Part shown: positions 1,901 to 60,120 of the stretch, piece by piece
Position numbering within the stretch: the stretch's first letter is position 1
Layout: each line of letters starts with the position of its first letter
Origin: Amoebophrya sp. A120
Taxonomy: Eukaryota > Protista > Dinoflagellata
Length of the DNA stretch: 64,000 nt
Direction of reading: 5' to 3'
Assembly: GCA_905178155.1 (NCBI GenBank)
Contig: CAJINV010000002.1
Coordinates: 10,272,146 to 10,336,145 of the forward strand
Made by a program: the position numbers and the translations under genes
Notes under the pieces: model-generated
The model's database searches: none
What the model saw: the letters and a program-made list of their open reading frames with translations, nothing else
What the model was told of the DNA's origin: nothing

Positions 1901-4900
1901 TTATTTCGCCCCATCCGCATCGCGTTTTTTCATTTTTTGCGCGGCTTGCTCTCGTATTTTTTTCCTTCTGTCTTCCTTGGCGTCCCCGATCATTCCGGAG
2001 TAATTATATTGCTGAAACCCGTTGCTTGTCAAGTCGGATATCGGTACCATCGAATTGCCCTGCGCGGATGTCAAAGACGTCATTGAACTGTTCGGCGGCT
2101 GAAACAGAGACGAGCCCACCATGCTCGGCATGTTTGACTCTGAAAGCTCGTCAATAGGTCGTGAGACAACTGCAGTAGATTCCTGCCCCTCGTCCCCGGG
2201 CTGCATTGATATCGCCTTCTGTGTCGTAGACGCCGTTGCTGGTGTGGCTGCAGCTACTTTTTTCTTTTTCTTTCCTTTTGTTTTGCGGTCACTGCTGTCG
2301 ACCTGTTCCCGTTCCTGTTCCACTGGCGAACCTGCTTCAGCAGCAACGACACCACCAGTTAGCTCTTCTGTGGTGGCGTCCTCTACAACCTCCTCGGGCC
2401 CACCGGTGGTTTTCTTGATCTTCTTTGGCAATGAAGTTTTGCTCTTCGGCTTTTTCGTCGGCTTTACTTTTTCCCCAGGACCAGTGCCTCGAGGCGACGA
2501 GTCACCTGCAAGAGAGCCCCCGCCGGAGGCTTCCGCTCGGTTATCCTTCTCGTCCAGCACGACGTGCAACGGAGTCACCGTGCCTACACTCTCGTGCGTC
2601 GGCCGCGGGCTTGTGCCTGTGGGCGGGCGCGGCGTCATCATCATCTTGGGCACTTTTACAACGTTTTGGTTCATCTGCTGGCGCTGGAGGAAACAGCAGC
2701 AAAAGCATTGCTGGAGAAAACTGGGTTCCTGGCTTTCCCGCTGCCGCTCTTCCTGAACCAATCCTTTCAGACGCGCCACCTGCTGCTCGCGCGTTCTTTT
2801 CTTCGCGAATGTTTTTACCTCAGTTTTCAGCAAATTCTTCAACTGATTGTGAGACACAACTGGCTTCGACGAAACCGATTCCGCCGGCGTAGTCGCACCC
2901 GCCGCTGACATCCGTGGTTGATGGTCTCCTCCTGCCGCTGCCGCGTTCTTTATAGAAGGCATTGGTACAACAACTGCACTTCCGCTAGTGCTACTTCTAC
3001 GCCTGCTGTCAGCCTCATCACCGCCCCCCGCCATGAAACCCAATGCTGCGGCCTCAAACTCTTTGTCGTCGGCACCAGCATCCATTCCAAGCCTTGTCTC
3101 TTTATTCTGCAGGAAGATCCGATCCATTTTCTCCCGGTCCTCGTCGCCCGCCTCGGCCAGCACCTCGGACACCTGGCGCGGTTCCTCGTGCAGCACCGCT
3201 TTGGCGACTTTTTTCGCAAACACGGGGGTGAGGCCCTGGAGCACGAAGAAACGCTCCGACTGCCCCAACTCCAGGTCCGCGCACGTGGTTGACAGATCCA
3301 GCTATCAAAATGAAAAAACCCCCCTCCCCATATCGAAACGCAGTCCGTGATGCTGGATTTGCGTACACAAATCAGATTTGTCTTGCTGAAGAGGACTGCA
3401 GGCCCACTGCAAGCTTGAGGAGCGAGGTTTTGGCGTAGGCGCTTAGCATGGGAAACGTCTGCGCTGTAGGCCAAACAGCATCACAAACCGCCTGCATAAT
3501 GCGGCGGAGCCTGTGGAGTTGCCTTCTTGCAGGACAGAGATGACTTGTGGTCGCAAATTAGCATTGCAAATTTTCTGCGACGTACCTTTTCGATATGGAG
3601 AGGGGGGATTTTTCCCTGCGATACCAGCAGCTGGGTGTTCAACCTGTGCACGTCGCCGGAGGTCACGTACTTCTTCTCCGCAACTCGTCGCTTCGTCCAT
3701 TCCGCCAGCGTAGCGTGGGTCTGCAAATCCCGCACGTGCTCCGCCTCCCCGAAGGTCGGGTCGTCGACCGTGAGCACCCCAAATTTCTGCAGAAGAGTCA
3801 AATCAGTCTCCGTCATGGCGGTGTCCGAAAGGTCAAGAACCTTCGCTTGTTCTTGGTCGGTGGACGAGATAGCAACAGCTTTATCTTTGTCTTGTTGGTC
3901 CGCTTTTTGTTGTTCTACCACGTGTTCTTCTCCCGCATCTAATGTGGAGGTTTCTTGTAGCACATCAGAGAGGGCGAGCTTTTTAGCAACCGCCGGAGAA
4001 AACCCGGCTTCCCGCAGGGCAGACTCGTAGTCGTCGGCCGTGAAGAGGACTTCCTTACCGGGAAGATTATCATGGGCCGGTTCAATGTCTAACTTCCAAT
4101 TTCCGTTTTCGTCGTGTCCGAACTTTTCTTTGAACTTCTGCTCGAACAAAAGCTGCAACTTTTCAACGGAGTCCACGTCGCCGTACGTTCGCAGCTGCTC
4201 CAAAATCTGCAAATCCGCGGTCGTCGGCTCGGCTTGTAGCTGAGAATCATCATCATCTGTGTGCCCTTCCACTGGTCCACCGGTGGATTTGCTTTTGTTC
4301 GCGCCGACAAACCCCCTCGTGAGACTGAAGCGCAGTGGCGCAGCAGCACTCCTATCGATTGATGGGCCATCAGACAGTGGGAGTTCTTGCGTCGTCAGGC
4401 CGTCGCCGACGTCCACCCTTGCGACCGCCGATGCCAGCGCCTTTGCGTAGTTTGCGGAGAGGCCCAGGGAAAGCAAGGCCATCTCTGCGGTCTCGAACGT
4501 GCAGGGTGGCAGCACCGGGCCCACGGTTTCTGCGTGCAGTGTGGGACCCGAGCGGGCCGCCCCTGCGCTCCCGCCAGAGACAAGGCTCGCGTTGGTCCGG
4601 CTCTTGTTCACGCTCTTGATGCTCTTCAGACTCGCACCCGACGTGCGCACCGCACTTTCCGCCGGCCCGGTTCGGAGTAGGTCGAGGGACTGCTCGGTAG
4701 TACCAAGGACGTGGTCGTGGTCCGCACCGGTATGATGAAGAATGCCCTCCTGTTGTCGTTCCGCAGCCGAGGCTCGTGCTGCAGTCCTGCCTGCCGGCAT
4801 GGCTTTGTCCCCCGCGATGAGAACCGGGGACTTTACGATGACAACCACTTTCGGCCGTCGCGCTCCAGCCGGCAGCACGGCGCGACGATCCTCCGCCTGT

Positions 4901-14500: not shown

Positions 14501-14570
14501 CTTACCCACAGCACTCAAACTGCTTGCGCTTCGACGAAGAAGTACCTCCACGACTGCTCTACTGAGTAAC

Positions 14571-17500: not shown

Positions 17501-20500
17501 TCACAATCATCGACCGCTGCTGCCGCCCCAGCATGTCGCTGGAAGACGTCCACGCGAGCAGGTCCATCACTTGCTGCGACAGTTCGCTGTAATTGTGATT
17601 TTTTTTCGTTTTTTAAATACTTGCATGGGATAAAAGCGATGCACCGCTAAAGAACTCTCTGCACTTGCTAGTAGAGAGCTAGTATCTCTATCTTCTATCA
17701 TGATGATGCAAAAAATACGTCTGCTCGCAGCTGCTTGTTAGGGTATTATACACCATTCAAGGTTAACATGAATTTGAATTTGCTCTACTTTTATAGAATC
17801 TTCTAGCAGCAAGTTGTAGATTCAAAATCCTATACCCTTTCCTCGCCATTTGCGGCAGCATGGCGACTCCGTGGTCCTGGACGTGAATCCAGCCGACCGG
17901 GGGCTTCCCGTGCCACGGCAGCATCTGGTGCAGCTCGTTGGCCGGAACGACCTTTCCGTCCTTGATCATGGTGGCCGTGTTGTTGAAGAAGGAGGAGATT
18001 TTTCCCAAATCGTTGCCGTTGGTCATCTTCGAGAAGCTGGCCTGCGTAATCCCGTCCACCGTCTTCGGGTTCTGCGACAGGGTCGTCCCGCAGCCCGCCT
18101 GCTGGTGCTGCGGCGCGCTGCCCTTTGCGATACTGCCGGTGGTGCCGTTCGCACCGCGGGACGCGGAGGTGTTTGCCGTGTTCTGGAAGAAGGCAGCGTT
18201 CCCGCCCTTCACATTGTACTGGAACATGGACTTGTTGTGCCGGGTTTGTCCCTGGTGCTTCCCGCCCCAGTTGTACTTGCTGTAGGGGTTCCCCTTGGAA
18301 CTTTGCTGGTGGTGCAACTGTGCCTGCGTGTAGTAGGGGTTGGAACTACCCTTCACGCTGTCCGTCCCGCTAGACGGCTGGCCGTTCACGCCCAAGCCGA
18401 GCCCCGTGTAGGCGTTGTCGATCGCGTTGGAGTCCATCACATTCATCTTGTCCTGCTTCTCGACCTGCATGCGCCCGCCCTGCGTATCCGCCGGTCGGCA
18501 AAGGTCGTACCTGGAAAGTAGAATTAGAAAGGTGGATTTGATAGTGTTCATTTTTCCGAATCACGCACTCCTGTTGTCAAACTAGAACAGAAACGAAATG
18601 TCAATCTCCGCATACTCATTTGCACAACAAATCGATCATGCGGCAAATGAACCTCGCTAAAAAGGAGCTACAAGAACTACAACGCTTATGGGTCATGATG
18701 CACAAGCACAACTCCTCGAAAGCGTATTACCTGCGTGGCTTGTCCTTGTCACCCTCGGCTTCCTTTTTGGCGGACGAAGTCGAACTTTGTGGTTCCGCGG
18801 CTGAAGGACTGGTGTTCGCGGACGTTGCCGAGGAGGTGCGTACGGGTTTTACATTCTTGTCCTCTTCCACGGCCTCCGCGGAGGGCTCAGCGGCAGCTGG
18901 AGAACCAGCAGTCGTCCCAGATCCATCCTTCGCTTCCTCAGCGCCACCTTCCGCCGCATTCTCTTCTCCCACAGGAGTTGGCTCGCTGTATGACGCCGCA
19001 CTGTGCGGGTCCTGCAGCGGCGGCCGGGGCTCCGGATGGGAAAACGGGGGCTGGGCGGCGTTTGCTGCCGCTACCGCGGCAGCGGCCGCCTGAGTTGCCG
19101 CGGCACCCGCCCCGGCGCCGACCAAGGCGGTGTACGCGTTCTGCACGGCAAAGTGGTGCTCCAGCTCCTGCGCGGTCGCCTGTGCCGCGGCGGTCACCTG
19201 CAGCTGCTCCAGCAACTGTTGCTGCTGCGCAGCGGCCGCGGCCTGAGCGGCCACCAGCGTGGACGCGGCCGCGGCATGGATGGTCTGTTGCAGCAGGTCG
19301 TCCGCGGATTTCCCACTGCCGTAGTACTCCGCAGCCGCCGGATTCAACGACGTGGCGGACGAGGAGGCCGAGGAGGAGGGGATCGCGTGGTCCAGGTGGT
19401 CCGTCCCCGCGCCGGTCTGGGAAAACGCTGTGGCCGCAAAGGGAACGTACGCCGCGTCCAGGGCCGCTGCACCCGCCGCGGCATCCACGGACGTGGCGGA
19501 TTCCAGCATGTGATGCGCGGCCGAGCCAACTCCGGAATTCGTGCGCGACAGCGACGCCATCGCCTCCTGGTGCTGCGCCGAGGCGGCAGCCGCAGTCATC
19601 AGGTACTGCTGCATCAGGTCGTACTGCCCAACCTCCTCGTGCGCGGTCACGTGCGAACTCGCCACGCTGACGCGACTCCCCAGGTGCTGCTGCTCGTAGT
19701 GGTTGTGCCCAGCAGCGTGATGCTGCTGCGCGGCCGCGGCGGCGGCGGCGAAGTAGGCAGCGTTCTGTTCGTGCAGGGGGGAGGCCATCAACCCGGTCCC
19801 AGCCGGCTGCTCCCCGGAGCCCGGCACCAGCGGGTCGTTACCGGTCGTGGCGGTCCGCGAGATCCCGTTGGTAGTTGTTCCGTAGTCCGTCGAGGCGCGA
19901 CCGGCGGCTTGCTTTAGATCCACGACGCTACCGGTAGCGGTGCTCATACCGAGGGGCGCGGTGCCCAGACTGCAGACCGCCTCCTCGGTGAGGGTACACA
20001 ACCCCCGGTCGTCGGTCGCCCCGCCACTGTAGTTTTGCGCGGCGAGCGACTGCTCCAGTGTTATGGATTGCAAAAATGTCTGGGTCTGGAAGATTGCAAC
20101 TTGTGATGCTGAATCCGAATCATGCAAAAATCTGTGTTGCATAAGTGCCAAAAGCTATCCCCTTTCGATCAAGTTGGGAGGGAGATTCTCATGCAGGAGA
20201 GGCATGGCAGAGACCTCACAGACTCTGTCATGCTAGGTCCTGCATTCCAGACCTCATGGGGCATGGAAAATATGCATGACAAATCTGCATTTTCCAGACC
20301 CAGACATTTTTGCATTTGATAAGTGTCGTGGCAGACCCAGTCAGCGAGAACTCGCCCCCGTAGTTGGCGTACACGCTCGACCGCCGCGGGTCGTTAAACA
20401 CGGGCAAGGACGCCGGAGAGTCCACGGAGCTCACGCCCGACATCTGCCGGCTCATCGGATGAAACCGGGTGGAGACCGAGCGACTGAAGTGCTTCGGCTT

Positions 20501-21981
20501 GGCAGAAGTACTCGTAGTTTGTTCCACCGCCTTTGTAGTTGCACTAGTAGTGCCAGCTGCTGTTGTCGCACCAGCACTGGTCGTGTTCTTGCCCGGAACT
20601 ACTACTGCAGCCGCAGGGGCTCCTGCTGTGGCGGCAGGAGAGGGGGTAGCAGCAGCCAAGGTGACGTCCTCGTTGCTTTGTTCAAGAACGCCATGATCTT
20701 TCGAAGTGCTCGCGTTGGTCTCCGGAGCGGAAATCGTGCGCGCAGCGGGTTCGTCCGCAGTTTCATCTTTTTCCCCTACGTAATCCAGCTCCGCCGTGCG
20801 GCTCTGCTGGATGGTGGTCTTGATGCGGTTTGCCGCAAACGTCGCGGTGACTTTCTTCTCATCCGCCTGCTGCTCGTTCTCTTGCATCGCAGGGGCCAGA
20901 ACCAGCTCCGGGTGATCACCGCTTTCTATTGTGGTCTGCTCCTCGAGTTCTTTACTTTGCGGAGCAGAAGCGGCAGCGCTTTCTCCGGGAAGATGTTGAA
21001 TCGACGTCGAGGTCTGCTCTGCGGTAGTTGTACTTGGAATGCAAGATGTTGAACCACCACGGCCACCTCGTCCCGCATCACTTGCACAAGTGCTGCGGGA
21101 TCTCTCCTCCGTTGATGTCATAGGAGAAGCAACCGCCGCGACGTTTATCCTGAGTAAAAACGTCCCCACACCAGAGTTGTCATGCAGATTTGCAATGACA
21201 GGAACATTTGTAATGCGCATCGCCAGGAGAGGCATTTTTAGTCGTGTTTTGGAATTTGTAATGCTGTAAACAGGATGAGTAGATGGATTTCTGATGCAGC
21301 TGGCCTTGCGAACCTGCACTACACTACGGACTGCAACTACTTGTGATGCGTGACCCCCAAAAGTTCTAGGTTTGTGTTGCAAAATCCCCATCTTGACTCT
21401 GGTGTGGGGATGTTTTTACTCAGGATAACGTTGGTCATTTCGTTGTTCAGCTGGCTGCTGTTCTGCAGCAGGCCAAAGGGGCTCGAGGGAGTGATCGTGG
21501 ACCCGGACTTGTTTTCGATCCCCGTCGACGCGGTGGTGGGGCAGTCATCACTGGTGAAGAACTTTTTCGACGGCGGTGGCGTATCGGAGGTTGGCGAGGA
21601 GGTTTTGTGCAGGACAAAACTCTCCGCCGAATTGGAGGAGGTGAGCGTCTTCAGCGTGGAGATAGAAGAATCCGTGTTGCACTTGGAATGCACCTCCAGA
21701 GGCACGGCCGTGCTCGCCTCCAGGGAATCCTCGCACCCACTGCCAGCAGTTGCCAACGCCTTACTATTTGGTGCTCTGCCGTTGAGGCTGCTGTCAGCTT
21801 GTTGCGACAGCATTTTGATCTTATCTGCTGCGTTATTCTCCATTTTGATATTGACGGTCGGCGACAGCTGCACCGGCTGGTAGGCTTCTGCCGTTTTTTT
21901 TGCGGTCGAATCTACTTGTTCCGCGAAAAGATTCTTGCTTTCCAGCAGTGCTTGTTCTACCACTGGTGTAGGAGATGACAT
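14571..21981 (-). CDS. Pumilio/PUF RNA-binding protein, 5 exons, ~2129 aa, with long low-complexity regions
   Basis: PUF repeats (CGNYVCQKL, YSCRVLQKF, NANHVVQRC, YGCRVLQRL, YGNYVLQYY, FASNILEKL, FGNYIVQKL). Exons 21428-21981, 20322-21140, 18731-20056, 17836-18510 and 14571-17586 sum to 6390 nt. They are separated by two introners and two phase-matched GT-AG introns (18511-18730, 17587-17835). Confidence 0.88.
20062..20321. mobile_element. Introner-like TIR element, family A1 (260 bp), TSD AGTGT
   Basis: AGTGT at 20057-20061 and 20322-20326. TIR TATGGATTGCAAAAATGTCTGGGTCTGGAA / TTCCAGACCCAGACATTTTTGCATTTGATA. Removal gives GSATT|LEQSL in frame. Confidence 0.95.
21146..21427. mobile_element. 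Introner-like TIR element, family B (282 bp), TSD ACGTT
   Basis: ACGTT at 21141-21145 and 21428-21432. 32-bp TIR TATCCTGAGTAAAAACGTCCCCACACCAGAGT with 1 mismatch. Removal gives NEMTNV|AAVASP. Homologous to 41875-42153. Confidence 0.95.
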
Positions 21982-24900: not shown

Positions 24901-25055
24901 AGGTACAGGTTCAAAGTGGCTCTGTCAAGCTAGTTTTTTTCTCGAAGTACCGCTAGAAACACGAGAGAGATGACACAATCTTCCGCGCGTATCCGATGAA
25001 AGTTTGAGTTTCACAAATACACTAATAGCTTGTTGCTACAACTTGCCCTGGGGGA

Positions 25056-28000
25056 CTAGGACCCGAGCTTCGGGACCGCGGGCGGGACAGGGGCTTGGTA
25101 TATCCTTGGAGCGACGTGCGGCCCCTGTTCGCCGGACAGTATGGAGGTGGAGAGGTCGTTCTGCAGCATCCCCGGGGCCTCCCCCGGTTGCTCGGCGGAC
25201 AAGACATTTGGATCTCGGATCTGCCGGTCATTCGACCGACACGAAGCCGTAGACAGGTCGTAGCTGATCGGACCGCTGTGGTTCACCACCGCGTACAATG
25301 AGTCCGGGTGGTTTTCCGGATTGTAGTTGAACATCGCCGCCTATGCATTGCAAATATGTCTGGGTCTGGAAACTTGTGATGCAAGAAAGGGAATAGTGAA
25401 CTCACTATGATGCGTTGCCAAGCATGACAAGTTTTTTTCATGGTTCTGAGTTGCGTACTCCGCATCACAAGCTGCGTTTTTGCATGACAGGGAGGAGGAG
25501 CTCTTCGCGGCCATGCAGCACAGAGTTCAGAGTCATGCCAGACTAGCATGACGAATCTCGCAATCTCCCAGACCCAGACACTTTTGCATTTGATACCGCC
25601 CACTCTCGAATTCGCGCCTGTTCTTGGTCGCCACGCGCCGCCGCCTGCCGCAGACCCCCACGGTCGGCGCTCTGTTCGGAAACGTCGTAGGAGCCGACTC
25701 TGGGAGGTTCCCTATTGTCATTGTATCCATCAAGGCAACGCTGGTAGTAAAAGTAATGCACAACCGCCAGAGCGGCGCTGATTAAAGCGAAACCGGAGAG
25801 ACCCGCCAGGACATGCAGGGCGGTGCTAGTGCCCCCATGACTGCCAAACGACGTCGGACCGGGTGCCGCCCAGCTTTCGTGTGAGTGGTCTACCTCTGGC
25901 ACATGTGACTTCGACGCTGGATCCGTTGAACTTGGATTTGCACGACCCCCGCCTGTCTGATTTTGCTTTTCCCCGAGCGTGCTTGAAGAGGCTGGCAACA
26001 AGAAATTATAAAGATTGTGACTTTGATTCTTTCCCTTTCCTTTTCCTTTTCCCTTTCCTTTTCCCGCCGGCGCCTCTGTTGTTTCACCCCATGGGAGGTT
26101 CCCGCCGTCCGCGCCCCCAGAAGCTGACTCACGACTTCCATTGCTCTGCGCCGTTGTGCTAGTTGTTAAAAAAGGCGGTGGGAAGTCGACACCGCAGGAC
26201 AAACTACCCGTGTGTCTTTCGAAGACAGGGGTATCATAGATGTGCCTGTCCGTCTGTGCCTTGTCTTCGACTGCAAGAAGGTCCTCCACTCCCTTGCCAT
26301 AAAAGCGGATCACGTCCCGGGGAAACGGGCGCAGGAGGCAGTAAGGAACCTCTGCGTCGGCATCCAGTGTGAAGGATCGGCAGCCGCTGGTGATGCGACA
26401 CAGCAGCTCGCAGGCAAAAAAACCCTGGGGGGGCCCCAGTATAGCGTAGGTCTGACTCGCAAGCAAGTGGACGGGCCGCTCTTGTTCATCTCTACTTACC
26501 ACCTGCTCCGCCAGCTGCGATCCTTCTTTCTTCATCTCGGCCAGAAGTCCTTCCCACTGCGCGACCGTTTTATCGTACCTCCACTCGGCCTTGCTCCACC
26601 GCGTCCACATGTTCCTCCACTGCACGGGTACGGCTGCAGGACCCAGCGGGACGATGTGCGAAATCCCCGACAGAAGCTCCTCCCCTTCCCAGGCTTCCCG
26701 CCACGAGGACTTCCGTACCATGTCAAACCGGTAGGCCTCTCCGCGTCGTGCGTCTTCCTCTAAGTTGCACTCCTTCCAGGCGCGCTGGCGGGGCGAACGC
26801 AGCGGACGAGGGTCGTCCTCCGAAAATGCACCATCCGCCGATGGTGCGAAATTCTTTTGCTCCTGCCCGACACGATGATCCGTGTGGCCGTCCTTTCGTT
26901 TCTTATCCGTTTTGCTGCCCTTGCTGATGTCCACCTTGTTGGGGCCATTCTTCTCCTCGCCCTTGTATTCACCAGCGGTAATTATCCAGGTAGTGGCGTC
27001 ACAAGGGAAGCCAACCGCTGTAGTATCCGGCTCCCGGTTGTAGTCACGACCGTCAGGCCTTTTATCATCCCTTAATCCATCGTGCACGACGAGCTCCACT
27101 CTGTCGGGCGGCTTGGAGAACAGCCGGCATCGCCAGCCTTCGTGATGCAAGACAGCCGGCAACTCTGTGTCTCGGATGCTATTTCGCGAACGAAACACCT
27201 CCCAACCGCGGCACGTGGCGGCCGGGATGCCGGGGAGTGAATGTTGATAGCCGGCGGGAAAAAGGGCGCAGGCGAGGGCGCACTTTTGCCGTGCGTGCGA
27301 GGCCGCAGCCTTCCTCCCCTCGTCGCTGGACTCGTTTTTTTGCGGGCACCAGAAATTCTGCCTTCCCATGTAGTTGTAGAGCCACTGCTTTCTCACGTTC
27401 TTTCCAACATCCGCGCCAGCCTGTTCGACCTCGGGAAGCGAATCCAGCAGCTTTGTGAAGTTGCTGGATACTTCCGCACCTTCAAGGTCCACCCAGCCGG
27501 CAGCATTGTCCCGAAATAAATTCACCCCGTCCACGTAGGTGACGACCTTTCCCTGCTTGTGTGCGCAGAGCTTCCGGTCGCTGCGATCTACAAAATCCAC
27601 GAGCCCCTCAGCTTCTCCCGCCGTCGTGCGGGACCCGGAGAGCGGAACCTCCAGCAGCATTACCGCCGGCACGTGTGCACTCTGCATCCCCTCCTCCGTT
27701 CGCGCGGCTTCCCGAAAGCCCGGCAGCTTGTCGTCCGCACCAATCACTTCATATCCGGATCCCGTTTCATACAAACCCGTCGGATAGGTGTCGACCGAGC
27801 AGCTACGCGGGGCAACAGAACCTTCTAGCACCTCATGTTCCATAGCATAGCTGGCAAAAGCATTCTCCCTCTCCACGTCTATGGAAATTCCGTCTCGGAC
27901 CTGCGGATACAGTAGCAGCCCGTTTCTTTTCCTCGGGTACTCCGGGTCACTCTCATCGCCCGTGAATTTACAACACAAGCACATGACATTTTTTTCGTTT

Positions 28001-37380: not shown

Positions 37381-40024
37381 TCATTGAAACAAAGTGAGCA
37401 TCTTTCTTTTTTCCTCGGACATTTGTTTCAGAGGGAGACAACAGAAGTCTTCCATCCTAAACCGAAAAACATTGTGGGGATAAAAATACGACTGATCTTC
37501 TCTTTTATCATTCACCGCGTTTTTCTCGCTCGCCAAAGACATATCTGCGGTTGCGGTGCAAGAAGTACCACTACCTGTGGCCGCACCAGTCCCCGCAGCA
37601 GCATTTGTTACCTCGGGTTTTTGTTTTTCCACAACTTTCGTGTACTCCCCCACTTCGGGCCTCTCCACGGTTTTGTAAAAGCCATTAATCGCCATCTCCG
37701 GAATACTCTTCTCCTTGCACCGCGCCCGCACGACGTTAAAGTGGACCGCGTACTCTCTCGGAACATCGAAATGAATGACGGAGCAAGTTACGGTGACGAA
37801 GTTACTAGTGCTCTTCTGCTCGTCCCCTTCTTGCTTGGACCGGAATGACGCGATCAGGTCGTAATAGTCTTTTCTGGTTTTCACATCCCGGTTGGTGTTG
37901 TCCACCAAGCAGTTTTTCTTCTCTTCAAACAACCCCTTCTTGCTATCAAAAGGAAAAATGCCCCCTCCCCATATCGAAACGAAGTTTCTGATGCTGGATT
38001 TTCGTACACAGATCGGATGCGTCTTGCAGTAGAGGACTGGAGGCATATGCCAAGCCGGAGCCGAGGGGTTTTGACGTAGGCGCCTAACATGACAAATGTC
38101 TATGCTGTAAGCCGAGCAGCATCACAGACCGCCTGTATAATGTGGCGGACTCTCTGGGCTTGCCCTCTTGCAAGACAGACAGGATTCGTGGTCACAAACC
38201 TGCATCGCAAATTTTGAGAGGGATGCGCTTTCAATATGGGGACGGGGGATTTTTCCTTACAATACTTGCACCGCGCCACACACGCGTCGCGCGACTTTAG
38301 CGTCTCCTGGTTCACGTAGATCCACGCCTTGCTGTCCGGGTTGCTCTCCTGGTCGAAAAAGAGCTGCTCAGCCAGCGTGGATTTCCCGGACCCGGGGGAA
38401 CCGACCAGGAGAACCAGGTGGAGGTTTGTACTAGAAGTGTTTCTGCTGTCATCGTTGCTGTTGTTCACCCCTACTTGTTCTTCAGAAGTGGCTGCACGAG
38501 CAGGACGGCCCAAAATCTGCTCTGTCACTTGCTTTCGAAACGAGCCTGCTTTTGTTCTCGTCGTGTTTTGCTCGTTTTGCTCAACTTCTCCTTGATGCGG
38601 GTCGTGTTCCGGCGATTCTCCCTGCTCCTGCTCTCGACTGCTCGCGTTTTTGAGCTGCGTCACCGATGGCACGAAGAATTTCCGCGGATCGAACCCCCCG
38701 AAGGAGTAGAACTTCTCGTCCTTTTCCTGCAGAAACCACTTCTCCGGGCTGTAGAACGTCCAACCCAGGTTCAGCGCAAACTTGTAGTCGGAACTGGAAA
38801 AGTCCTTCTTCGCAATTCCGGCCCGCTCCGGCCGGCCCGCGGCGTCGCCGACGTAGAAGGAAGTGCGCGTGTCAATCTCGAAGTTTGGATTTCTTTTCTT
38901 CATCTCTTGCACCACAAACTCGTACCCACCGGTGCCCGGCTTCCGGCAGTAGTTCTCCCCCAGTGCGGCGATGATGACGACTCGGTCCCTCGTTTTCTCG
39001 TCCAATTTCGACAAAATTTGCTCGCATTTCCACTTCCAGTCGTTCAACCTTAGTTCCTGCTGTTTCCGGTTGTTTTTGTGCAGCGAAAGCCCGTTTTGAT
39101 TTGTGAAAATCCAGATTTGAGTTGTAAAAGTAGATGAACTCGTGTTGGGTGGATTCGAATCTGATTTTACTTCGCAAACCAGCTCATTCAACCGCTTCAC
39201 CACCATATTATTCGGATATAACCACTGCCAGTCGTGCTTATCCTTGGGAAAAACCTTGTATAAGCTGCTCAGGTGTTACAATCTCAAACGTTACAATAGA
39301 ATCTGGAATTTGTGTTGCAAGAAGCGCATTATCTAGCTTACTCCCATAGGATTGCGCATGACAAGTTCTGGAGTCCCAATCCGCACTACAATCTGGCGAA
39401 ATTTGTATTGCAGAAAGTGGAATGCTGTCCGAGTCTGTCATGCTCATCATGCAATACAAAACCCAGACTCTATTGTAACATTTGAGATTGTAACGTTTGA
39501 GCGGGTCATACCTTGCCGGATGAAGTTTTGATCAAAGTGTTGTCCAGGTCGAAGGCGGCCACTCGAAGGCGGTTCTTATTTTGCTTGTTTACATTTGCCT
39601 CCACTGGTTGCCCGTATGCAACGACTGGGTCGTTGATGTTTTCAGGCAAGTGTTCTAGCGTTTTCGCCCCAAAGTAAATGTGCAGAGAATCGTGGTAAAA
39701 CGACTTCCACAACTGCGGTGACGGATTGGTCGAGGACGCAGACGTGGCTTTTCCCGCGATTATGTTGTTGCCCCCGCCAATAGTTCCCGGCATCCCGAAG
39801 ATACGGACAGGCTTTTTCGTGGGTGGGTGGGGGCCGCCAACGGCGGTATGTTGAGTCGTGCCATTTGTTCCGGGAGCATTTTGTTCCGCAGCTGGTCGCT
39901 TCAAGGAAGATGTCGAGCTGGCAGAAGCGCCTGCAACTGCTTCCTGTGGATCCTGTTGCGGCGGAACTGCTGCTTCCTTCGATGGCATGCCTTCTTTATT
40001 TTCGGTCACCCTTTCTTGATGCAT
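37381..40024 (-). CDS. PNKP: Bifunctional polynucleotide 3'-phosphatase/5'-kinase (~686 aa; start codon uncertain)
   Basis: AAFDLDNTLIKTSSGK|VFPKDKHDW, IFTNQNG, RKPGTG, FYVGDAAGR, KDFSSSDYKFALNLG, P-loop GSPGSGKST, VDNTNRDVKTR. Two introners split these motifs; exons 39511-40024, 38265-39253 and 37381-37938 total 2061 nt. Confidence 0.93.
37944..38264. mobile_element. Introner-like TIR element, family C (321 bp), TSD CTTGC
   Basis: CTTGC at 37939-37943 and 38265-38269. Removal gives CVARCK|KGLFEEKKNCLVDNTN. Confidence 0.95.
39259..39510. mobile_element. Introner-like TIR element, family D (252 bp), TSD CCTTG
   Basis: CCTTG at 39254-39258 and 39511-39515. ~48-bp imperfect TIR containing GTTACAATCTCAAA(C/T)GTTACAATAGA. 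Removal restores the conserved SGKVFPKD motif. Confidence 0.95.
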
Positions 40025-40665
40025 CTGCCGGTAGGGTGGAATAAATGATGTATCCTTACTGATCAAGTTGAATGAGTCGTGATGTAGATGTTTACAACTA
40101 TTACGAACATAAAAAAGCGCACAAAGACAAGAAAGGACTGGCAATGTCTGATGGATAAATGATCACCACGAAGACATACTCCCGCCAAATGATGAAGTAA
40201 ATCCAGTGAAGATCATAAATTGAAAATTGCCTGACAAAACCAAACCTGAGCCTCATGAAACAGTGTAAGATCAACGAAGGTGGTGTTCAGAGAAGGAGAA
40301 GCAAGGCCATCTCAAAAAAAAGTCGGATCGCGAATTTCCAGAACGCCCTCAGAAGATTATCATTCTGTCCGCAGGTTTTTCAAGGTCCCTGCTCAGAAAA
40401 GTGCACCGTGTCCACCTTCAGACAGTTTGAGAAGTTTGATGTGCTGGTACAGATACAACTGTGTGTCGCACGATGGATGAAAAAGACTTTCGTTTTTGTG
40501 GTGGTCGCTCTGAATCAATGACAGGTCGTGGTCGGTTCATTCTAAAGTTAACATCAATTTTTTGTGCTGCACGGCGATGCAGGGAGGCGGCGCAGGTAGT
40601 CGAAGATGCGGCGAAAATCAAAATGAAACCTATCAAGAACAGGTGATAAAAGTAAACGAATCGCT

Positions 40666-42729
40666 TCATCTAAAGTTCGTTAACCCGAAAGTTCCGCCCC
40701 AGCTCCCGTTCATTGCGCGATTGTCGTTGACGCCGCCACTCCCCGAGACGCGGCCGGCGGCCACACCGATTAGATTCGCATACTTTATCTCACCTGAAGC
40801 GTCTTCCCACTGCCAGCGCAGGTTCTCGTGTTCCGTAAAATACTTTATTGGGATGCCCCGCTTCTGGATCTTGGTGGATACTGAGGCTGTGCTTGTTTTC
40901 GTCGTAGTACAATTCTGCGACAAGCCTTTCGACCCGGCCCCAGGCTGTTGAAGATCATTGCTGGAGACAGGATCTTTAATTTTTGAGCTAGAGGATGACT
41001 GTTCTACTCCGACAGGACCGCCATCGCTGTTCGATACTCCCTCCATCATGCCGCTGCTATCGAGCAACGGATCGACGGCCGGGCTTTCTTCTGCGGTGGC
41101 GTCAGCCGTGCTTTGCAACGACATGGTGCTTTTCATCAAGTCTCGATTTGCGCTCTTCAAGTTTTTGTTACTCTCCTCCGGCGGCGTCGGGGGTGCGGCG
41201 GTCGATTTCGTCTCCAGCCCGGCGTGCGTCAGCGGGTTTGTTTTCGAAATTTCGTTGATCGTAGCGGCACTCACCACGTTGTTGGTGGGCAACGTTATTG
41301 TGTTCAGTGGCGCAAGCGTCACTTTGTTCGATTTGCTATTTTTCAGCTGCGCGGCGTTTTCCTCAAGCATTTCGACGAAAGCGGGCGACCAGGTCGGTTT
41401 CGGCTCGACGAATTCGCCCGGGGCGATCGACTCCGTATTGTCGAGGGGGACTTTCTTCAGGTATGGAAGCAGAAAACACGTGTGCGCGTCACTACGAATC
41501 ATCTCGTCGGCAAGTTTCCTGTTTTGATGTGGGGGGATGGAGCATCATGTGATAAGCACAGAGGATCTTCAGATTTGTATTTTCATCTGCTGGATCAGGA
41601 TTTCTTCTGCTGCAACTTTTGCTCCTTCACGAAAGGGCCACTTACTGAAAGAGGTCCTGGAGGCGACAAATCGGTATTGCATGCGAATCAAAGGTGCGGA
41701 ACCACTTGTCCTCGGGCATCGTATCAAGTTGTAAGTAGCCTACTTTGTTCTTTTCGTTTGATCATTTCATTGAGGAACCAATAAGACGTATAATACCGGA
41801 ACTTCCTTTCCCGGATCGCGGTCCTCCTGCCCTGGGCGTCGGGCGACAGCTTGGGGTCGTCAAGCTCGAAAAGGTATCCTGGGTAAAAACGTACCCACAC
41901 CAGAGTTGTAATGCAGGTTTGCAATGACAGGACCATTTGTAATGCGCATCCGCATGAGAGCCATTTCCAATCGTGTTTTGAAATTTGTAATGCTGTAAAC
42001 AGGATGAGTAGATGGATTTCTGACGCAGGTGGCCTTGCGAACCTGCACTACACTGCAGAGTGCAACTTGTCATGCGTGACTCACAAAAATCCTATGTTTG
42101 TGCTGCAAAATCCCCATCCTGACTCTGGTGTGGGTACGTTTTTACCGAGGATAAAAGGTCAATTTGAGACATCTCGTCCCGCTGCAAGAACGAGGAGAAA
42201 TCGGAGCCCATACTGACGTATGAATTGCAAAAATGTCTGGGTCTAGAAGATTCCAAACTTGTAATGCTGTCTCTGGATTCTAAAAAAATGTGTATTGCAT
42301 GACCAGCAAGAGCACTCCACTTAGTGCTACGCGAAGAGGGCATTTCTCATGCGGTAGAGGCATCGCAAACTCCTCTAAAAATATGTGATGCTAGGGCATG
42401 CATCACAGACATCATGGGCCATACAAAATATGCATGACAAACCTCCACTAGGGCCGTGCATACAAAATAAACATGTCGATCGATTGTGCCACTAGGGCCT
42501 TGTGTTCCGGCTATTCCGGATCGCAATCGATGGAGGGCGGGACCTGCACCGGCGACAGGCGCTACCCAACCAACCAACCAACCAAACCTGGCAATCTTCC
42601 AGACCCAGACACTTTTACATTTGATATGACGTCTTTGTCCGAAGGATCCGCAGCACCGCCCGCGCACCACTTCGCGCAGGATCGGGACGTTTGGTTCTGA
42701 AAGGCAAAATGCTCGCGATCCGGGACCAT
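40666..42729 (-). CDS. Hypothetical multi-exon protein interrupted by two introners
   Basis: MVPDREHFAFQN...DKDV|SMGSDF...SQIDL|FELDDPKLSPD reads through once both elements are removed. A GT-AG intron at ~41519-41645 leads into ORF 40666..41502. One junction near 41740-41800 is unresolved. Confidence 0.55.
41875..42153. mobile_element. Introner-like TIR element, family B (279 bp), TSD AAAGG
   Basis: AAAGG at 41870-41874 and 42154-42158; TIR TATCCT(G/C)GGTAAAAACGTACCCACACCAGAGT. Confidence 0.95.
42219..42626. mobile_element. Introner-like TIR element, family A1 (408 bp including a nested insertion), TSD TGACG
   Basis: TGACG at 42214-42218 and 42627-42631; family A TIRs; 263 bp without the nested insert. 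Confidence 0.93.
42445..42582 (+). mobile_element. SINE-like retroposed insert (138 bp) with (CCAA)n tail and 7-bp TSD CAAACCT
   Basis: CAAACCT at 42438-42444 and 42583-42589; (CCAA)5 at 42566-42585. Removing it restores the family A1 length. Confidence 0.7.
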
Positions 42730-46923: not shown

Positions 46924-47395
46924 AATCGAAGAGCAACAACGCGATCACGCAGGGCGAGTCTTCAAAACGAATACCTACACAACATTGCGAATAATTTCTT
47001 CAAAGTTTGTATCGCCCTCTACTGTACTACTACTAGTACTAGGAAGATATAAGTTTCGCAATTTCTTTACCCATCCGCAAGGTCCTCCAAGCTTCCCAAC
47101 GACCCCGCATTGGTTTCTTCCAGCATCGGCAAGGCCTCCATACACTGCAACTCCTCGAACTTCTGGGTAAAAACCGTGGGTTGATCCAGCGGACTTTCGT
47201 CCAGATTCCGCGAGGCCGGAGTCTGTACAGCGTTTGTTGTACTGGTCTAATAAAAATTTGTTCGAGAATTATAAGTACCCAACGGACAGCACGTTTTCAA
47301 ACAGTTCAACATCCTTCCATGGATCGACATTCAGCATCGTGTTCTTGCTCCAATTATTCCAAAGGAAACACAAAAAAAAACTAGATCATGTTACG

Positions 47396-48301
47396 TTAGT
47401 TTACCTGCTCACTGATGATCTTCATCCATGCCTCTTCCGGGGTTTCCGGGCTCGCCTCACCCTGCGGTTCCTCGAACCCGCAGATGGGCGACACCACGCT
47501 GGTGTCCTCCTGCTCGTGGCCCGTGCTCTTCCGCCCGTGGGCCGTGGTGTCCTCCGACTCCGCCAGAGACTTGTCCAAATTCAGAGCCTGCTGCAAACCC
47601 TCGATCCGTTTAGTAGCGTTGGTGCCCTCTCCTGCTGTCGTCGTGGTGCGCTCGCCGGTGCCCGGCGTCGTGGAGGTACCCTTCTTGTTGGACAGCTGCT
47701 TCTTTTTCTTGTTCGACTGCTCGATGACCATGGCCTCGGCCGGGGTGGGAAACTTGTTAGCGTAGGAGTTCACGCGGGCCGGCGGCGTTTTGGTCCCCGC
47801 CGCGGGTTCTTCGGTAGTCGCATCGTGGTCCCCTCCAGCCGCGGCGCGATAGTACTCAACGGCGTAGTCCTCGGGACTGTCGGCCCGGGGCAGCAGCTGC
47901 GGCAACGTCGTCGACCCGGCGGTTGTTGCGGGCACGGAGTAGCTCCCGTCCGTCGTAGATTTACTGAAGTCATCGTGGCTCTTCGAAGAAATGATACCGC
48001 CGGGGTAGGACGTCGGACTATGCGCAGCTGCTTCGTCGAGAGAAACGTGTTCTAAGTCCTTCTTCTTGCCGCTACCGCTGTAGTCGCCCCCACCGATCAC
48101 CGAGAGGACATCCGGGCTTGCTTGTTCTCCTGTCAGCGCGCCGTCCACTTTCTTCGGCGGCTCCGAAGTAGTGGTGTTGGATTCGCCAGAAGTGGTTCCG
48201 CCGGTAGCGAACTTCGTCCAGTCAAAATCCATGTTTTCTGTTGCGGTTTTCATTTTTATAAAATCACAGTTTCTAGAGGACAAAAAATGAAGAGCGGCCA
48301 C
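47396..48301 (-). CDS. Low-complexity T/S/E-rich exon, probably spliced to the CCCH gene
   Basis: 301-aa ORF ending at a donor-like CAG|GTAAAC. A further open segment at ~47070-47230 ends in GG|GTAAG. Confidence 0.55.
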   Translation of the reverse strand: MAALHFLSSRNCDFIKMKTATENMDFDWTKFATGGTTSGESNTTTSEPPKKVDGALTGEQASPDVLSVIGGGDYSGSGKKKDLEHVSLDEAAAHSPTSYPGGIISSKSHDDFSKSTTDGSYSVPATTAGSTTLPQLLPRADSPEDYAVEYYRAAAGGDHDATTEEPAAGTKTPPARVNSYANKFPTPAEAMVIEQSNKKKKQLSNKKGTSTTPGTGERTTTTAGEGTNATKRIEGLQQALNLDKSLAESEDTTAHGRKSTGHEQEDTSVVSPICGFEEPQGEASPETPEEAWMKIISEQVN

Positions 48302-48365
48302 AGCCGTGTGTAAGATGTTGAAACGGAGAGGAGCAAGAAACGTTCTACCACCTTTTCTTCTACAC

Positions 48366-49456
48366 AGTCACAGCAGGGAAAAAACAAACCAAAACAGAAA
48401 GACAACAAGAAAAACACCACCTCCTCCGTTTTCCTGCGGGCCTGGGTAAAAGTCCTCGTACTGCTCGTGGTCGTAACCGGCGGCCGCCTGCATGTAGTAG
48501 TCCTGCATGTTGGCATATGGCGAGCAAAAAGTGTTTCACTGTAAGGATTTTGGCAGGTTTGCATCACAAGTTCCTTACACATGACAAAGAAAACTTGCCA
48601 TGCGAGATCCCTAAGGGAAAACAGAGCTAACAACTCAATGTCTTGCATGTGTAGCAAGACAAATGCGTCTTTGTTCCATTCTATGCATCACAAGTTTCCA
48701 GTGAAACAGTTTTTTCTCACGATATGGCAGCCGCGGCCCCCGCCGCACCGTACATGTCGGTCGCGTCTGCGCTGTATCAAGTGCAAAAGTGTCTGGGTCT
48801 GGAAGGATGCGAGGTTTGTCATGCGTGTCTGCCATGACTGAAGAGTTTGTGATGCGTGTCCAAGAAGAGACCCTCTTGCTTGTCATGCAAAACGCAGTTT
48901 CTCATGCGGAAAGCGCAACACTAAGCAGCGAAAATGTTTCTCATGCTTGGCTGTGCATTACAGAGAGTTCACTATTAACAACTCAGCATTACAAGTTTCC
49001 AGACCCAGACATATTTGCATTTGATACGCTGTTAAAATTTCCCATATTCGCCATCGCCGCCGCCATATTGGCCATCATGAAGTTCGTCGCCGGATCCGCT
49101 GCGCCCCCGCCCGGCGCCGCTCCCTGCGCCGCGGCGGCGTACATGCTGGCCAGCGCATTCGGGTCCATGGCAGCAGCAGCAGGATTTTGCTGTTGGTGCT
49201 GTTGCGCCGCCGGGTCAAAATAGGAAGGGTGCTGCAGCCAGGAGGAGTGCTGTTGCTGCTGCTGCGCATCGTGGTACCACTGCGCATTCTGGTCCTGCGC
49301 TGCGTAAAACATACCCATTTGCTGTTGAAAACTGTTGCCCTGTTGTTCCTGCTGTGTCTCACCCTTCTGCTGGCCCTGGTGTTCCATCATCTTCTCCTTC
49401 TGGTGCTGACGCTGTTCTTCGGCAGCCGCCGCCGCTGCCATGCCTGTTTGCATCAA
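48366..49456 (-). CDS. Q/A-rich low-complexity coding region split by two introners
   Basis: MMQTGMAAAA...MGNFNS|ADATDMYGAAGAAAA|NMQDYYMQAAAGYDHEQY reads in one frame with uniform composition after both elements are removed. The 3' end is uncertain. Confidence 0.6.
48516..48724. mobile_element. Introner-like TIR element, family E (209 bp), TSD TGGCA
   Basis: TGGCA at 48511-48515 and 48725-48729. Left end TATGGCGAGCAAAAAGTGTTTCACTG versus reverse complement of right end TATCGTGAGAAAAAACTGTTTCACTG. Confidence 0.9.
48775..49026. mobile_element. Introner-like TIR element, family A2, reverse orientation (252 bp), TSD CGCTG
   Basis: CGCTG at 48770-48774 and 49027-49031. The interior is the reverse complement of the 25342 and 51321 copies. 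Confidence 0.95.
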
Positions 49457-50699
49457 AATTCAAACATCATGCACAGTGAAATTGACAAATTTTTTCATTT
49501 CATTTCCATAACGAAAAAAAAAACGTCGCCGCAGATGCAAAACGGTCTGGAGCAACATTCCGCAAATGAGAAAAAGCTTCTAATATAATCACCTCCGTCG
49601 GATGGAATCTCCATCTCTACTTCGCCCTAGTCGCCCGTATTTCTACTTTCTGTCTTTCTAGGATCTCGTCACCGATGTTGTCAAAGATAGATTTCTTGCC
49701 TGCGAACTTGGTTCTCGTCTTGCTTTCACTGCATAATCCAGTACTGTTGCCGATGTTGTCACTGTTGTACCATTGGCCCACTTTCCGTAGCTTGGTGTAT
49801 CAGCTACACGATCGCGGTACCGTCTCCTCGAATGATATCTTGTTTTCTCGTTCCTTTCTAATACTCCGTTACTGATGTTTTCGTGTTGCCGCTATGCAGC
49901 CCTACTTTTCTACCAGTTTGCAACTAATACAATTTGATTTATGCATTGAGCACACGTTGACCTTTTACTCGAATTTTTCATTCTACTTCTAACCTTTGCG
50001 GATTTACTATCAAGCGCACTGAAACATGAAACGCACAACATCTTCAACATCACGCCTGTCAAGAGGATATAAAAACTTTTTCTAAATGAGTCCAAAAATG
50101 ATCTTAGGCCCACTTTGATTTCGATATCTTTTGCCGACGCAGACAGCTTTGACAAAACTTCTTTTCGTGAGGACACAACTATGAGTACACAGGCAACTTA
50201 CTTCTACTTTCGTATTTTTTATTTTTCCGTCGCAGTCCTCATGTACGCATTACGAAAACTCCAGATACTTGCTTCTCTTTCACGCCTTTCACAGTCGTGC
50301 AACCATGATTCAACATCACTTATCAACGGTTTTCGATTTTCAGGAGAAATTACACTGCATAAAGAACGCTTTTTTCCCCTACATCTCGGTGGAACCGGAA
50401 GGTGAACATCTGACACAACACTTCGAGGAGCAGAAGGATGCAATTGAAAGACAACACGGCTCCACCAATAGAACAGACGAATTTAGCGTTTCTTTTATAT
50501 CGATAACCCCCTTAAAACAGTTTCTTCGAACAGGATGAAATTCTGCGGGTTTTTGTGTTTCCTCCCGCCCTCGATATCATCAGCGGTTAGACCTATCATA
50601 TTCGATTAAACTTCTCCTTTGCACATCTGCAATATGGCGGGCGAGGCCTCTTCTCCTAGGTATGCAAACGAACAGCACGGTGCGTCGCATGCAACGTTT

Positions 50700-53600
50700 T
50701 CAAAACACGTCGTCAATCTCCTCATCCAGCGCATCCAGCCCCATGCGCTCCCTTTCCATTGGCTCGTACGCCGACATGAACTTTTCGATCGCACCCCACT
50801 TCCCTCGGTTCCAGCCGTCCTGTTTTCAACGTTGTTTCGCATAGCACCCGAACGATGGCATGAGCATGAAAAAATGGAACTATCATACACTGGCAGCATT
50901 TCACATACCGAACTACTTCGCGTCTCTTTTCCAGCGAAACCACTTGCTTCTATACCTCTGTTTTTGCCATCAGTTTATGGTTGATGATATCCAGCTATCA
51001 AATGTAAAAATGTCTGGGTCTGGAAGATTGCAACTTGTCATGCTAAATCTGCAGCATGCAAAAATCTGTGTTGCATGATTACCAAAAGCCGCCCAATTTT
51101 GACCAAGTCGGGAGGTAGTTTCTCATGCAGGATAGGCATTAGAAAGTTCTCGCAGAATCTGTCATGCTAGCTCCGGCATTCCAGACCTCATGGGTCATGG
51201 AAAAGCAGCATGACAAATCGCGCATTCTTCCAGACCCAGACATTTTTACACTTGATACCAGCTCGACGACGGTCTCGCCGTATCGGTAAAACCCCTTGTT
51301 AATTCGATGAAACGGCACGGTATCAAATGCAAAAATGTCTGGGTCTGGAAACTTGTGATGCTAAAAATGAATGGTATACGAACTGCATTACGCAGCTATG
51401 CATGACAAATTTTTTGGCTCCCATGTCTTACGTATTCCGCATGGTAAACTGCGTTTTTGCATGACAGGTAAGAGGGCCTTTTCGTGCCTATGTAACACAG
51501 ATTCTCAATTCATGCCAGACAAGCATGACAATAAACTTGCATTCTTCCAGACCCAGACATTTTTACAGTTGATACACGGCGGAGCCGGTCGAATTGTAGA
51601 ACTCAGCCAGGCGATTGTCCACTGGATCACGCAAATCCCATGGCGTGTAGGGAACCTTGTTCCACGTCAAAATTATGTTGGGCACAACTGGTGGCAAAAC
51701 TACGCTACGCTGGGCTACTGCAGCGAGGAGCGCGTGATGACTTGTAGCAACAATCTATTCGGACAGCCGAAGGCGGCGCCTGGAGGTGCTTCTATGCAAG
51801 CATCTCTAGTATTATTTGAAAAAAAATCAGTACCGCTGGCCGTGTGCTCGCATAGAGCTGCCGTGTGTGCAAATGATGCTGCCCGCCACCGCGATTCGCG
51901 CTGTTTCGTGACCCGCCGCTCTGTTTGGTGTTTCATACACAATTCCAGTTATTCAGAGCAGCTTGTCGTTTCTGAGCAATGTTTCGCATGCCACGAAAGC
52001 GACAACGACAAATACTTCACTTTTTACGCACAAGAGCAGGGCGTGTCATTTCTACTTCTTACCGTCGCCGAATATCGGCTTGCATTCTGTTCCCCCGGCG
52101 TTCGCACGACGACTCCCGCACCGGCGTCCCTTTCTGCCAGCATCTTGTGTAGTCTGTCGATCTCCCGTGCCTGTTCCTCGTTTTCGGATTGTAATTCTGC
52201 TACCTGCCGCTGCAACTGCTCCACCTGGTTCATCGCCGCAGATTGCTGCCCGACGGAGAGATTGGTCGTGTTTAGAGAGGTAGAGTTGCGCGACACAGGG
52301 CCGGTAGTTTTGTTGGTCAAGACAGACCTGCTGTTTACATTTGTCATTGCTCCTCCGGTGGTGGTACTGTTTCGCGCGGCTGGTTGCGCGAAGTGTGGCC
52401 CCGATCGGGAAGAGGAGGATCTGGAGTTCCGCGATTGGCTGGCTTGTTCCTGGTGCTCTTGCGGATCCCCTTGTGATGCACTGTGTAGGTGTTGCAGTTC
52501 CTCTTGCTGCGATACTTGATGTTCAGTCACACTGTAGTTGCTCCTGGACGACCCCTGATGTCCTTGACTGAAATTGTTCTGCGTATACGCATTTCCATTA
52601 CGTCTCACCAATCCAGCACCTGACATGTTGAAGGTTCCGGCACTTCCACTACTGGGGAAGAACTGCTGCGGTAGTTGCTGTGGTGCGGGAACCCCAACGG
52701 GCCCGGGTGGCGGCAAGCCTCGGATCACATTGTTCCCTGGTGCGGGCCGGTAGAAGTTCCCGACTTTGTTGCTCGCTGCAGAACTGTTGGCTGTTTCGCC
52801 ACCCACCGATTGCTGTGGCAGCACGAACTGGGGCATAGACTGCTGTGGCTGGTACACGGGAACGCCTCCCGGCACGTTTTGCTGCCCGGGGAAAGATATC
52901 AACTGTAAAAATGTCTGGGTCTGGAAGAATGGAAGATTTGTGATGCAGGTTTTCCATCACCCATGAGTTCTGGAATGCGAGACCCAGCATGACAGATTTT
53001 CTGAGGTCTCTATCATCCCTTTCCTGCATGAGAAACTCCCTCTCAACCTGGTCAAAAGCAGACAGCTTTTGGTACTCACGCAACACAGATTTTTGGATCA
53101 TTCAGATTTAGCATTACAAGTTCTAACCTTCCAGACCCAGACATTTTCACATTTGATAAAAGAGAGCATGGGCTGCTGTAGCTGCGTAGGAACAACTCCA
53201 GGTACGACACGACTGGGCACCTTGACACGGAAACACCTCGACAGTGAACTCCCGACGAATTTTGCAAAACCCCTAGTCGATTCTTTGTCGATTCCTTATC
53301 CAAAACGAAAATCGCACGCACGTGCTCCAATGTCTACGCTCACGACTGTTGTCGTGCGCCACACGGCCAGAGAGAAGGCCGGCGACTTGAAACCACACAA
53401 AGCCAGCGCTTTGCTCCAAGTCGCTGGCAGTTTTTGGCGTCCCCTTTCGGTGTCGAACAATTGCACGCCGCGCTGCGGTTCTACTGTATCGAACCGGCTG
53501 CGCGGCTTTTGCACTGTGCGTCATCTTCCGGCTCGAGCCTTGCTTTGTACACTTGTACGAAATGGAGGCCCCGCTCACCCTGCGGCGTGGCGATTTTGCA

Positions 53601-60000: not shown

Positions 60001-60120
60001 GCGCGGAAGCTGTGGACAACGGAGGACCAAAACGGAGTCGATTCAGGATGGATATGTGCCTATTTGCTGTCTTAATAAAGATTTTTTTGAATTATTGAAG
60101 TCATAATCCTCCAGACCATC

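Follow-up and report, generated by a model that had tools for sequence, protein, structure and literature searches.

In the dinoflagellate Amoebophrya sp. A120, 65% of introns are non-canonical, and 29,850 introner elements have been counted (Farhat et al. 2021, PMC7789003). The ends of these elements consist of TAT, seven looser bases and then a run of A; inverted motifs of 8–20 nucleotides (nt) and direct repeats of 3–5 nt (5 base pairs, bp, in the legend of Fig. S19) were reported, and the elements form repeated families. The same study described non-canonical introns backed by RNA sequencing in host genes that also have GT-AG introns, and U1 small nuclear RNA (snRNA) was undetected in A120. 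Inverted-repeat elements with integrase-like frames have also been reported from this organism (PMC12130899), and the introns of other Amoebophrya strains are mostly GT-AG (PMC12005148). Here, we examine a stretch of 64,000 nt from A120 (contig CAJINV010000002.1, positions 10,272,146 to 10,336,145; hereafter the window), in which thirteen elements with inverted ends interrupt coding exons.

Comparable removal of inserted sequences from RNA is known elsewhere. In SOS splicing (Zhao et al. 2025, PMC12779559), exonic DNA transposons leave messenger RNA (mRNA) in worm and human cells; the process is triggered by paired inverted ends, needs AKAP17A, CAAP1 and RTCB, and uses sites that are rarely GU-AG. 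In the nonconventional introns of Euglena, splice sites are set by their spacing from a paired motif, the machinery is unknown and excised circles have been reported (PMC12501133). For Amoebophrya, a relaxed spliceosome has been proposed; in Fritillaria, one has been demonstrated (PMC11282704).

An initial annotation of the window, made from the sequence alone, had likened its insertions to the Amoebophrya introners. The connection is closer than a resemblance: the DNA itself is that of A120, the spliced products of the window equal two deposited A120 proteins at 100% identity (CAD7936156.1, here P0121, and a second protein, P0124), and five of the 13 introns are already present in the deposited gene models, which are transcript-guided (PMC7789003). 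It is almost certain that the thirteen elements belong to the introners described by Farhat et al. (2021). The feature is thus already published, and the mechanism of removal was left open there. Among the papers covered, which included few subscription papers, we found none that solves this mechanism or ties Amoebophrya to SOS splicing; the word Amoebophrya occurs 0 times in the main text of PMC12779559. In the portions of Farhat et al. (2021) and of its supplement text that were covered, figures excluded, we found no statement on element orientation, bypassed GT-AG or repeat mismatches. Statistics on orientation or target sites may already lie in those figures or in the datasets of PMC12130899. 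The present analysis narrows the ways in which tens of thousands of published elements may be removed.

Thirteen exonic insertions, with exact removal where checked

Candidate elements were sought as 5-bp repeats abutting TAT...ATA at a spacing of 60–3000 nt. Thirty such pairs were found in the window, of which 13 have 19–24 matches over 25 nt of inverted ends, compared with at most 12 in the other 17. The 13 elements are 209–408 nt long and lie in minus-strand frames; as the initial annotation had described, they begin at the positions given there, start with TAT, end with ATA and are flanked by an exact 5-bp direct repeat in every case. Each of 30 order-3 Markov controls contained 0 elements. 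Their inverted ends, scored over 25 nt, are longer than the motifs reported for A120 introners. TAT followed by 7 nt and three or more A is found at one or both ends of 12 elements, with 39259 as the exception (elements are named here by their start). Rfam gave 0 matches.

Deletion of each element together with one repeat copy joins open minus-strand frames in 13 of 13 cases (frames of 2110, 902, 1142, 732, 108, 206, 92 and 334 amino acids, aa). The P-value for all 13 falling within frames is near 2e-4, given that about 51% of the remaining window is coding according to a hand-drawn exon list. Restoration of the frame, including the conserved PNKP motifs, had been claimed before, and it holds well beyond open frames in three host genes.

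The gene for P0121 (50703..54599, minus strand) contains three elements: 50996..51257 (262 nt; sense repeat GCTGG), 51321..51574 (254 nt; CCGTG) and 52897..53158 (262 nt; TCTTT). The gene for P0124 (40669..42729, minus strand) contains two, 41875..42153 (279 nt; CCTTT) and 42219..42626 (408 nt; CGTCA). The deposited proteins require that 267, 259, 267, 413 and 284 nt be taken out at 52897, 51321, 50996, 42219 and 41875, respectively, which in each case is the element plus 5 nt. The AT5 ortholog of P0121 aligns without gaps across 51321 and 50996. GT-AG introns were said to coexist with the elements in the same genes, and four are present in these two: 52062–51921, 51833–51656 and 50955–50820 in P0121, and 41796–41519 in P0124. 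The third host frame encodes PNKP, polynucleotide kinase 3'-phosphatase (PF08645; 37384..40162, minus strand; best match Amoebophrya AT5.2 g9452.t1), in which 37944..38264 (321 nt; GCAAG) interrupts the kinase domain and 39259..39510 (252 nt; CAAGG) the phosphatase domain. After removal, PNKP is colinear at both sites with all 11 homologs aligned, of 120 listed.

Further evidence came from run X3, which consists of contigs whose RNA origin is a guess and which also skips the GT-AG intron 45420–45570. One X3 contig of 2190 nt skips 257 nt at 39259, and its next piece stops at 38265, in keeping with exact removal at 37944; the GT-AG alternative would stop at 38266. Another X3 contig has a piece that begins at 52891, as would be expected if 52897 is removed exactly. 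The runs used may share their origin with the window or its annotation. In the raw RNA runs X9 and X10 (221 and 3 reads), matches are partial and fall almost exclusively on the ends of elements; these runs are uninformative for these genes. About 200 of the X9 reads, at 53072–53158, represent the end of a related element fused to foreign sequence, that is, a partial copy retained in expressed RNA of another locus or strain.

Outside support therefore covers seven elements (37944, 39259, 41875, 42219, 50996, 51321 and 52897). The initial annotation had expected RNA junctions with exactly one repeat copy; this is seen as a whole junction at 39259, as edges at 37944 and 52897, and at five sites of the transcript-guided models. 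For the other six, frame joining and the coding model point to the same removal. They are 3303..3623 (321 nt; GCTGG), which shares a family with 37944 and lies in the 2110-aa frame with a VWA match; 20062..20321 (260 nt; ACACT), a member of the largest family; 21146..21427 (282 nt; AACGT), 88% like 41875; 25342..25595 (254 nt; GGCGG); 48516..48724 (209 nt; TGCCA); and 48775..49026 (252 nt; CAGCG). All six lie on the minus strand. The orientation of 48775 is opposite to that of its relatives 25342 and 51321, and that of 52897 is opposite to 20062 and 50996.

To these we added 147 loci (371 kilobases, kb) from a pattern scan, all from one assembly (JACKZZ01 records) that may represent the same organism; the loci do not overlap the window genes, and the sample is biased to one family. 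Window and loci together hold 283 unique elements (270 further ones), 45 of them with imperfect repeats. The loci share the window families at up to 95% identity, and 15 families of three or more members were recognized among the 283. When 321 end pairs were found without requiring a repeat, 230 had an exact 5-bp repeat, as had 123 of 145 partner ends in the loci. We called the reading frame independently in each 150-nt flank; the element plus 5 nt, modulo 3, fits 94 of the 96 callable elements (187 of the 283 were not callable: 19 too short, 160 unclear and 8 with strand conflict). One of the misses is 52897, whose upstream flank enters the next annotated intron. An earlier frame model, since replaced, had called 37 elements, of which 36 fit.

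At the level of residues, removal is exact at six of seven junctions (two each in PNKP, P0121 compared with AT5, and RPB1 of locus L066; the miss is in KIN17). At L066:3524-4495, one RPB1 piece reaches human residue 1091 and the next picks up at 1092; the second RPB1 site is contiguous in Pfam numbering. A Pfam search of 82 flank pieces yielded two usable pairs. Unspliced read-through is possible in only 3 of the 175 elements that could be oriented to a host gene, the other 172 introducing stops or frameshifts. No autonomous, transposase-bearing copy was found among the long candidates in the 371 kb of loci, and a search of viral and prokaryote contigs for the end pattern gave 0 matches.

Five elements crowd into about 6 kb of RPB1 (L066 779-4495 and L068 3075-4335); one of them, 972 nt long, has additional sequence in its interior, and the repeat copies of another differ. 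False end-pair calls arose at L016 3243-3483 from a tandem array of 17-nt units, some of them inverted.

Boundary signals and strand symmetry

The initial annotation had listed eight sense repeats (ACACT, AACGT, CCTTT, CGTCA, TGCCA, CAGCG, CCGTG and TCTTT) at whose boundaries no frame-preserving GT-AG exists. This was borne out, and the case is stronger than stated. An exact GT-AG is possible at 39259 only and an exact GC-AG at 25342, leaving 11 of the 13 elements without either. At 3303, 25342, 37944 and 50996, the arrangement G|TAT...ATA|G would provide a GT-AG that leaves 3 extra bases. For seven of the eight listed repeats, in-frame GT-AG pairs occur within 25 nt, but they would leave or remove other bases. 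At 37944, the GT-AG adding 3 nt misfits both the homologs and the X3 contig edge at 38265; at 50996, the GT-AG would add one residue and misfits the AT5 ortholog, which is gapless there. At two sites of the window, therefore, an available GT-AG goes unused.

Among the 175 oriented elements, with any equivalent cut allowed, 13 can be removed by an exact GT-AG, 4 by GC-AG and 8 by AT-AC, and 150 by none of these. No cut register fixes more than two of the four terminal bases. The would-be first base shows no enrichment of G (51 vs 45.3 expected, P-value = 0.18), and in 25 cases with imperfect repeats the coding score is flat over the cut positions. Repeats start at codon position 3 in 79 of 175 elements, which may reflect target preference and was not used as evidence. 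Removal is independent of GT-AG.

The largest families sit equally in both orientations. For the nine families of four or more members (138 of the 175 elements), the numbers in the two orientations relative to the host gene are 32/32, 16/13, 6/6, 3/5, 4/4, 3/3, 5/0, 2/2 and 2/2. Branch-like motifs show no sense-strand excess in 124 elements (18 vs 26 and 8 vs 9), although a signal inside the inverted ends would itself be symmetric. Of 429 5-mers, one is strand-skewed (P-value = 4e-4), which is not significant after correction. Considering the equal orientations and the lack of a sense-strand branch motif, the signal lies in the symmetric ends, either as sequence or as a stem. Such symmetry is also compatible with a spliceosome, since each orientation shows the same end sequences. 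In predicted folds of all 13 elements, 20–29 of 30 end pairs form on the sense strand and 19–29 of 30 on the antisense strand. The TAT is conserved no better than the inner core (138–141 vs 140–144 of 145), and hence shows no extra selection. Whatever the machinery, it must recognize a signal that reads alike on both strands, takes precedence over an available GT-AG and still works when the repeat copies differ.

Explanations for the removal

The reading that we favor, tentatively and at slightly less than even odds, is cleavage and ligation on the RNA, triggered by a hairpin and taking place outside the spliceosome. The insertions would have been made by a cut-and-paste transposase, as the 5-bp target duplication suggests. 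The inverted ends are predicted to pair into a stem that brings both repeats together; a nuclease or an RNA-catalysed step might then cut at a set distance from the TAT and ATA ends, within the repeats, and an RtcB-type ligase would join the exons. The term RtcB does not occur in the supplement text of Farhat et al. (2021), and no genome was searched for it. A bolder form of this proposal is possible but somewhat more doubtful: a precise, orientation-blind, spliceosome-independent system would handle most A120 introns by a perfected SOS-type cleavage and ligation that reads the hairpin and the 5-base repeat, with the crossover anywhere in the repeat, so that new exonic insertions are harmless.

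Several observations weigh against cleavage and ligation outside the spliceosome. Exact GT-AG is mildly more frequent than expected by chance (13 vs 7.2, P-value = 0.03), as is NNAGG (7 vs 3.1, P-value = 0.04, uncorrected), with the antisense mirror CT likewise raised (13 vs 7.2). A120 keeps 83 of 89 spliceosome proteins (PMC7789003). The outermost pairs are unformed in the folds of 3303, 20062 and 42219, and stem mismatches of the G-U and A-C types occur equally often (114 vs 111), which gives no sign of selection for RNA pairing. After exact removal, KIN17 (locus L028) is one residue longer than human KIN17 and the Pfam model. The RNA support comprises one whole junction, at the GT-AG-compatible 39259, and two edges, in contigs guessed to be RNA. 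Finally, SOS splicing is imprecise and leaves indels (PMC12779559), whereas A120 removal is exact in six of seven residue tests and 94 of 96 frame calls. The initial annotation had proposed a second excision system working beside the spliceosome; its precise removal without GT-AG stands, but its independence from the spliceosome does not follow, as a relaxed spliceosome may also be at work.

Such a modified major spliceosome is a serious candidate, though a doubtful one. An adaptor on the inverted ends would replace U1 and direct cuts by distance (e.g., one base upstream of TAT and four downstream of ATA), and the demands on the terminal bases would be relaxed. The undetected U1 snRNA together with a nearly complete set of spliceosome proteins (PMC7789003) would suit this explanation, and Fritillaria offers a precedent (PMC11282704), although its introns hold to a fixed AG-A(N) pattern. 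N|TAT is similar to the GTAT donors found in local introns, matching their positions +2 to +4, a likeness that also tells against cleavage outside the spliceosome; the would-be first base, on the other hand, is not enriched in G. T-runs, which occur in the 3' end in both orientations, the mild NNAGG excess, and a depletion of T at repeat position 4 (15 vs 26.4, P-value = 0.004, uncorrected, one of 13 tests) count in favor of such a spliceosome; the two bypassed GT-AG sites and the lack of a strand-specific branch motif count against it.

Three other explanations, namely polymerase skipping, DNA excision and an artefact of complementary DNA (cDNA), are less likely than either cleavage and ligation or a relaxed spliceosome. 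In polymerase skipping, which we consider unlikely, the template strand would form a fold at the inverted ends, across which the nascent transcript would realign from repeat to repeat, so that nothing is excised. This would account for the single retained repeat, the strand symmetry and the free boundaries. Mismatches between repeat copies also bear on it: 20 of 31 are synonymous, as if both copies were sometimes translated, compared with a fraction of 0.27 if neutral and at most 0.42–0.45 if one copy is always intronic. The P-value is 0.01–0.025 against a fixed cut, 0.01–0.11 over five overlapping settings and 0.052 at the highest transition weight, and the result is one among many exploratory tests. 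If real, the synonymous excess means that translation at times includes either copy and that the position of the joint varies within the repeat, of which it is a weak hint. The borderline significance of this excess, and the imperfect repeats in 45 of 283 elements, count against skipping. To our knowledge, no comparably efficient skipping by RNA polymerase II has been described.

Ciliate internal eliminated sequences leave one repeat copy. Excision of the elements from DNA in the expressing stage, in a similar manner, would suit their transposon-like ends, single retained repeat and orientation independence, all of which befit a DNA reaction; we nevertheless regard it as very unlikely, as seven listed X1 DNA contigs do not break off at the repeat but continue for at least 23 bases into the element ends, and the element is skipped in 0 of the 15 joints listed (832 more joints exist), in one run whose contigs drop rare forms. 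Template switching by reverse transcriptase at repeats beside a hairpin, with genes broken or elements retained, is extremely improbable even though all the RNA-derived evidence could be cDNA and junction repeats of 3 nt or more are the standard flag for this artefact (10.64898/2026.04.03.716279), because 172 of 175 elements introduce a stop or a frameshift, and conserved RPB1 and PNKP motifs with intact flanks are split by elements.

At the 45 elements with mismatched repeats, the cut could be mapped directly from RNA reads that already exist. A precise SOS-type system, if indeed at work, would represent a second general route of mRNA splicing and would account for the harmless accumulation of transposons in essential genes such as RPB1.

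Other insertions in the window and relation to known systems

Three non-coding tandem units of 991 bp occupy 59700–62690 of the window, each with a copy of the main family that lacks its right end (60398, 61389 and 62380); these three copies in the array (60.4–62.6 kb) were absent from the initial annotation. The P0121 model implies a 1289-nt intron at 54507–53219 (minus strand), with a 3-base repeat, arrays of 11-nt units in its interior and inverted ends of about 25 nt that differ from TAT...ATA. This intron sits between two copies of an exon segment of about 50 nt, and an alternative is a GT-AG intron that removes one copy of the segment. A 1.6-kb element at 33469–35096, with inverted ends of about 84 nt and inner palindromes, lies within a GT-AG intron, which interrupts a thioredoxin-like gene in its WCPPC region; the 371 kb of loci contained no relative of this element. 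All window genes examined are on the minus strand. At 43298–45419, an X3 contig reaches about 2 kb beyond the stop codon of a CCCH zinc-finger gene, whose 3' untranslated region is thus long. The AT5 orthologs of PNKP and P0121 are g9452 and g9455 (window 37384–54599), and this numbering suggests that gene order may be conserved here between AT5 and A120.

With their short length (209–408 nt), inverted ends and target duplication of constant length, the thirteen elements have structural properties of miniature inverted-repeat transposable elements (MITEs). MITE-type introners of Micromonas, Aureococcus and Polarella are likewise non-autonomous, with inverted ends and target duplications, and are enriched in genes; they differ in that they carry or recruit canonical or GC-AG sites (PMC9860276, PMC12130899, PMC11282704). 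In A120, 150 of the 175 oriented elements lack all of the GT-AG, GC-AG and AT-AC boundaries that characterize U2 and U12 introns. The introns of Fritillaria borealis also share inverted ends, target duplications and positions that are recent and species-specific; unlike those of A120, they have fixed AG-AC/AG-AT boundaries and are removed by an adapted spliceosome (PMC11282704).

The nonconventional introns of Euglena resemble the A120 elements in their paired ends, which in A120 are predicted, free terminal bases, coexistence with GT-AG introns and proposed MITE origin (PMC12501133, PMC11282704). Their signature is N3CDG...CH'GN5-6|R, which is not that of the TAT...ATA elements in A120. SOS splicing is similar to the situation in the window in that exonic transposon insertions are removed, inverted ends pair (as predicted here) and sites are rarely GU-AG (PMC12779559). 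With the A120 introners of Farhat et al. (2021, PMC7789003), the thirteen elements share the organism, the ends, the repeats and the families, and no difference in kind separates the two.

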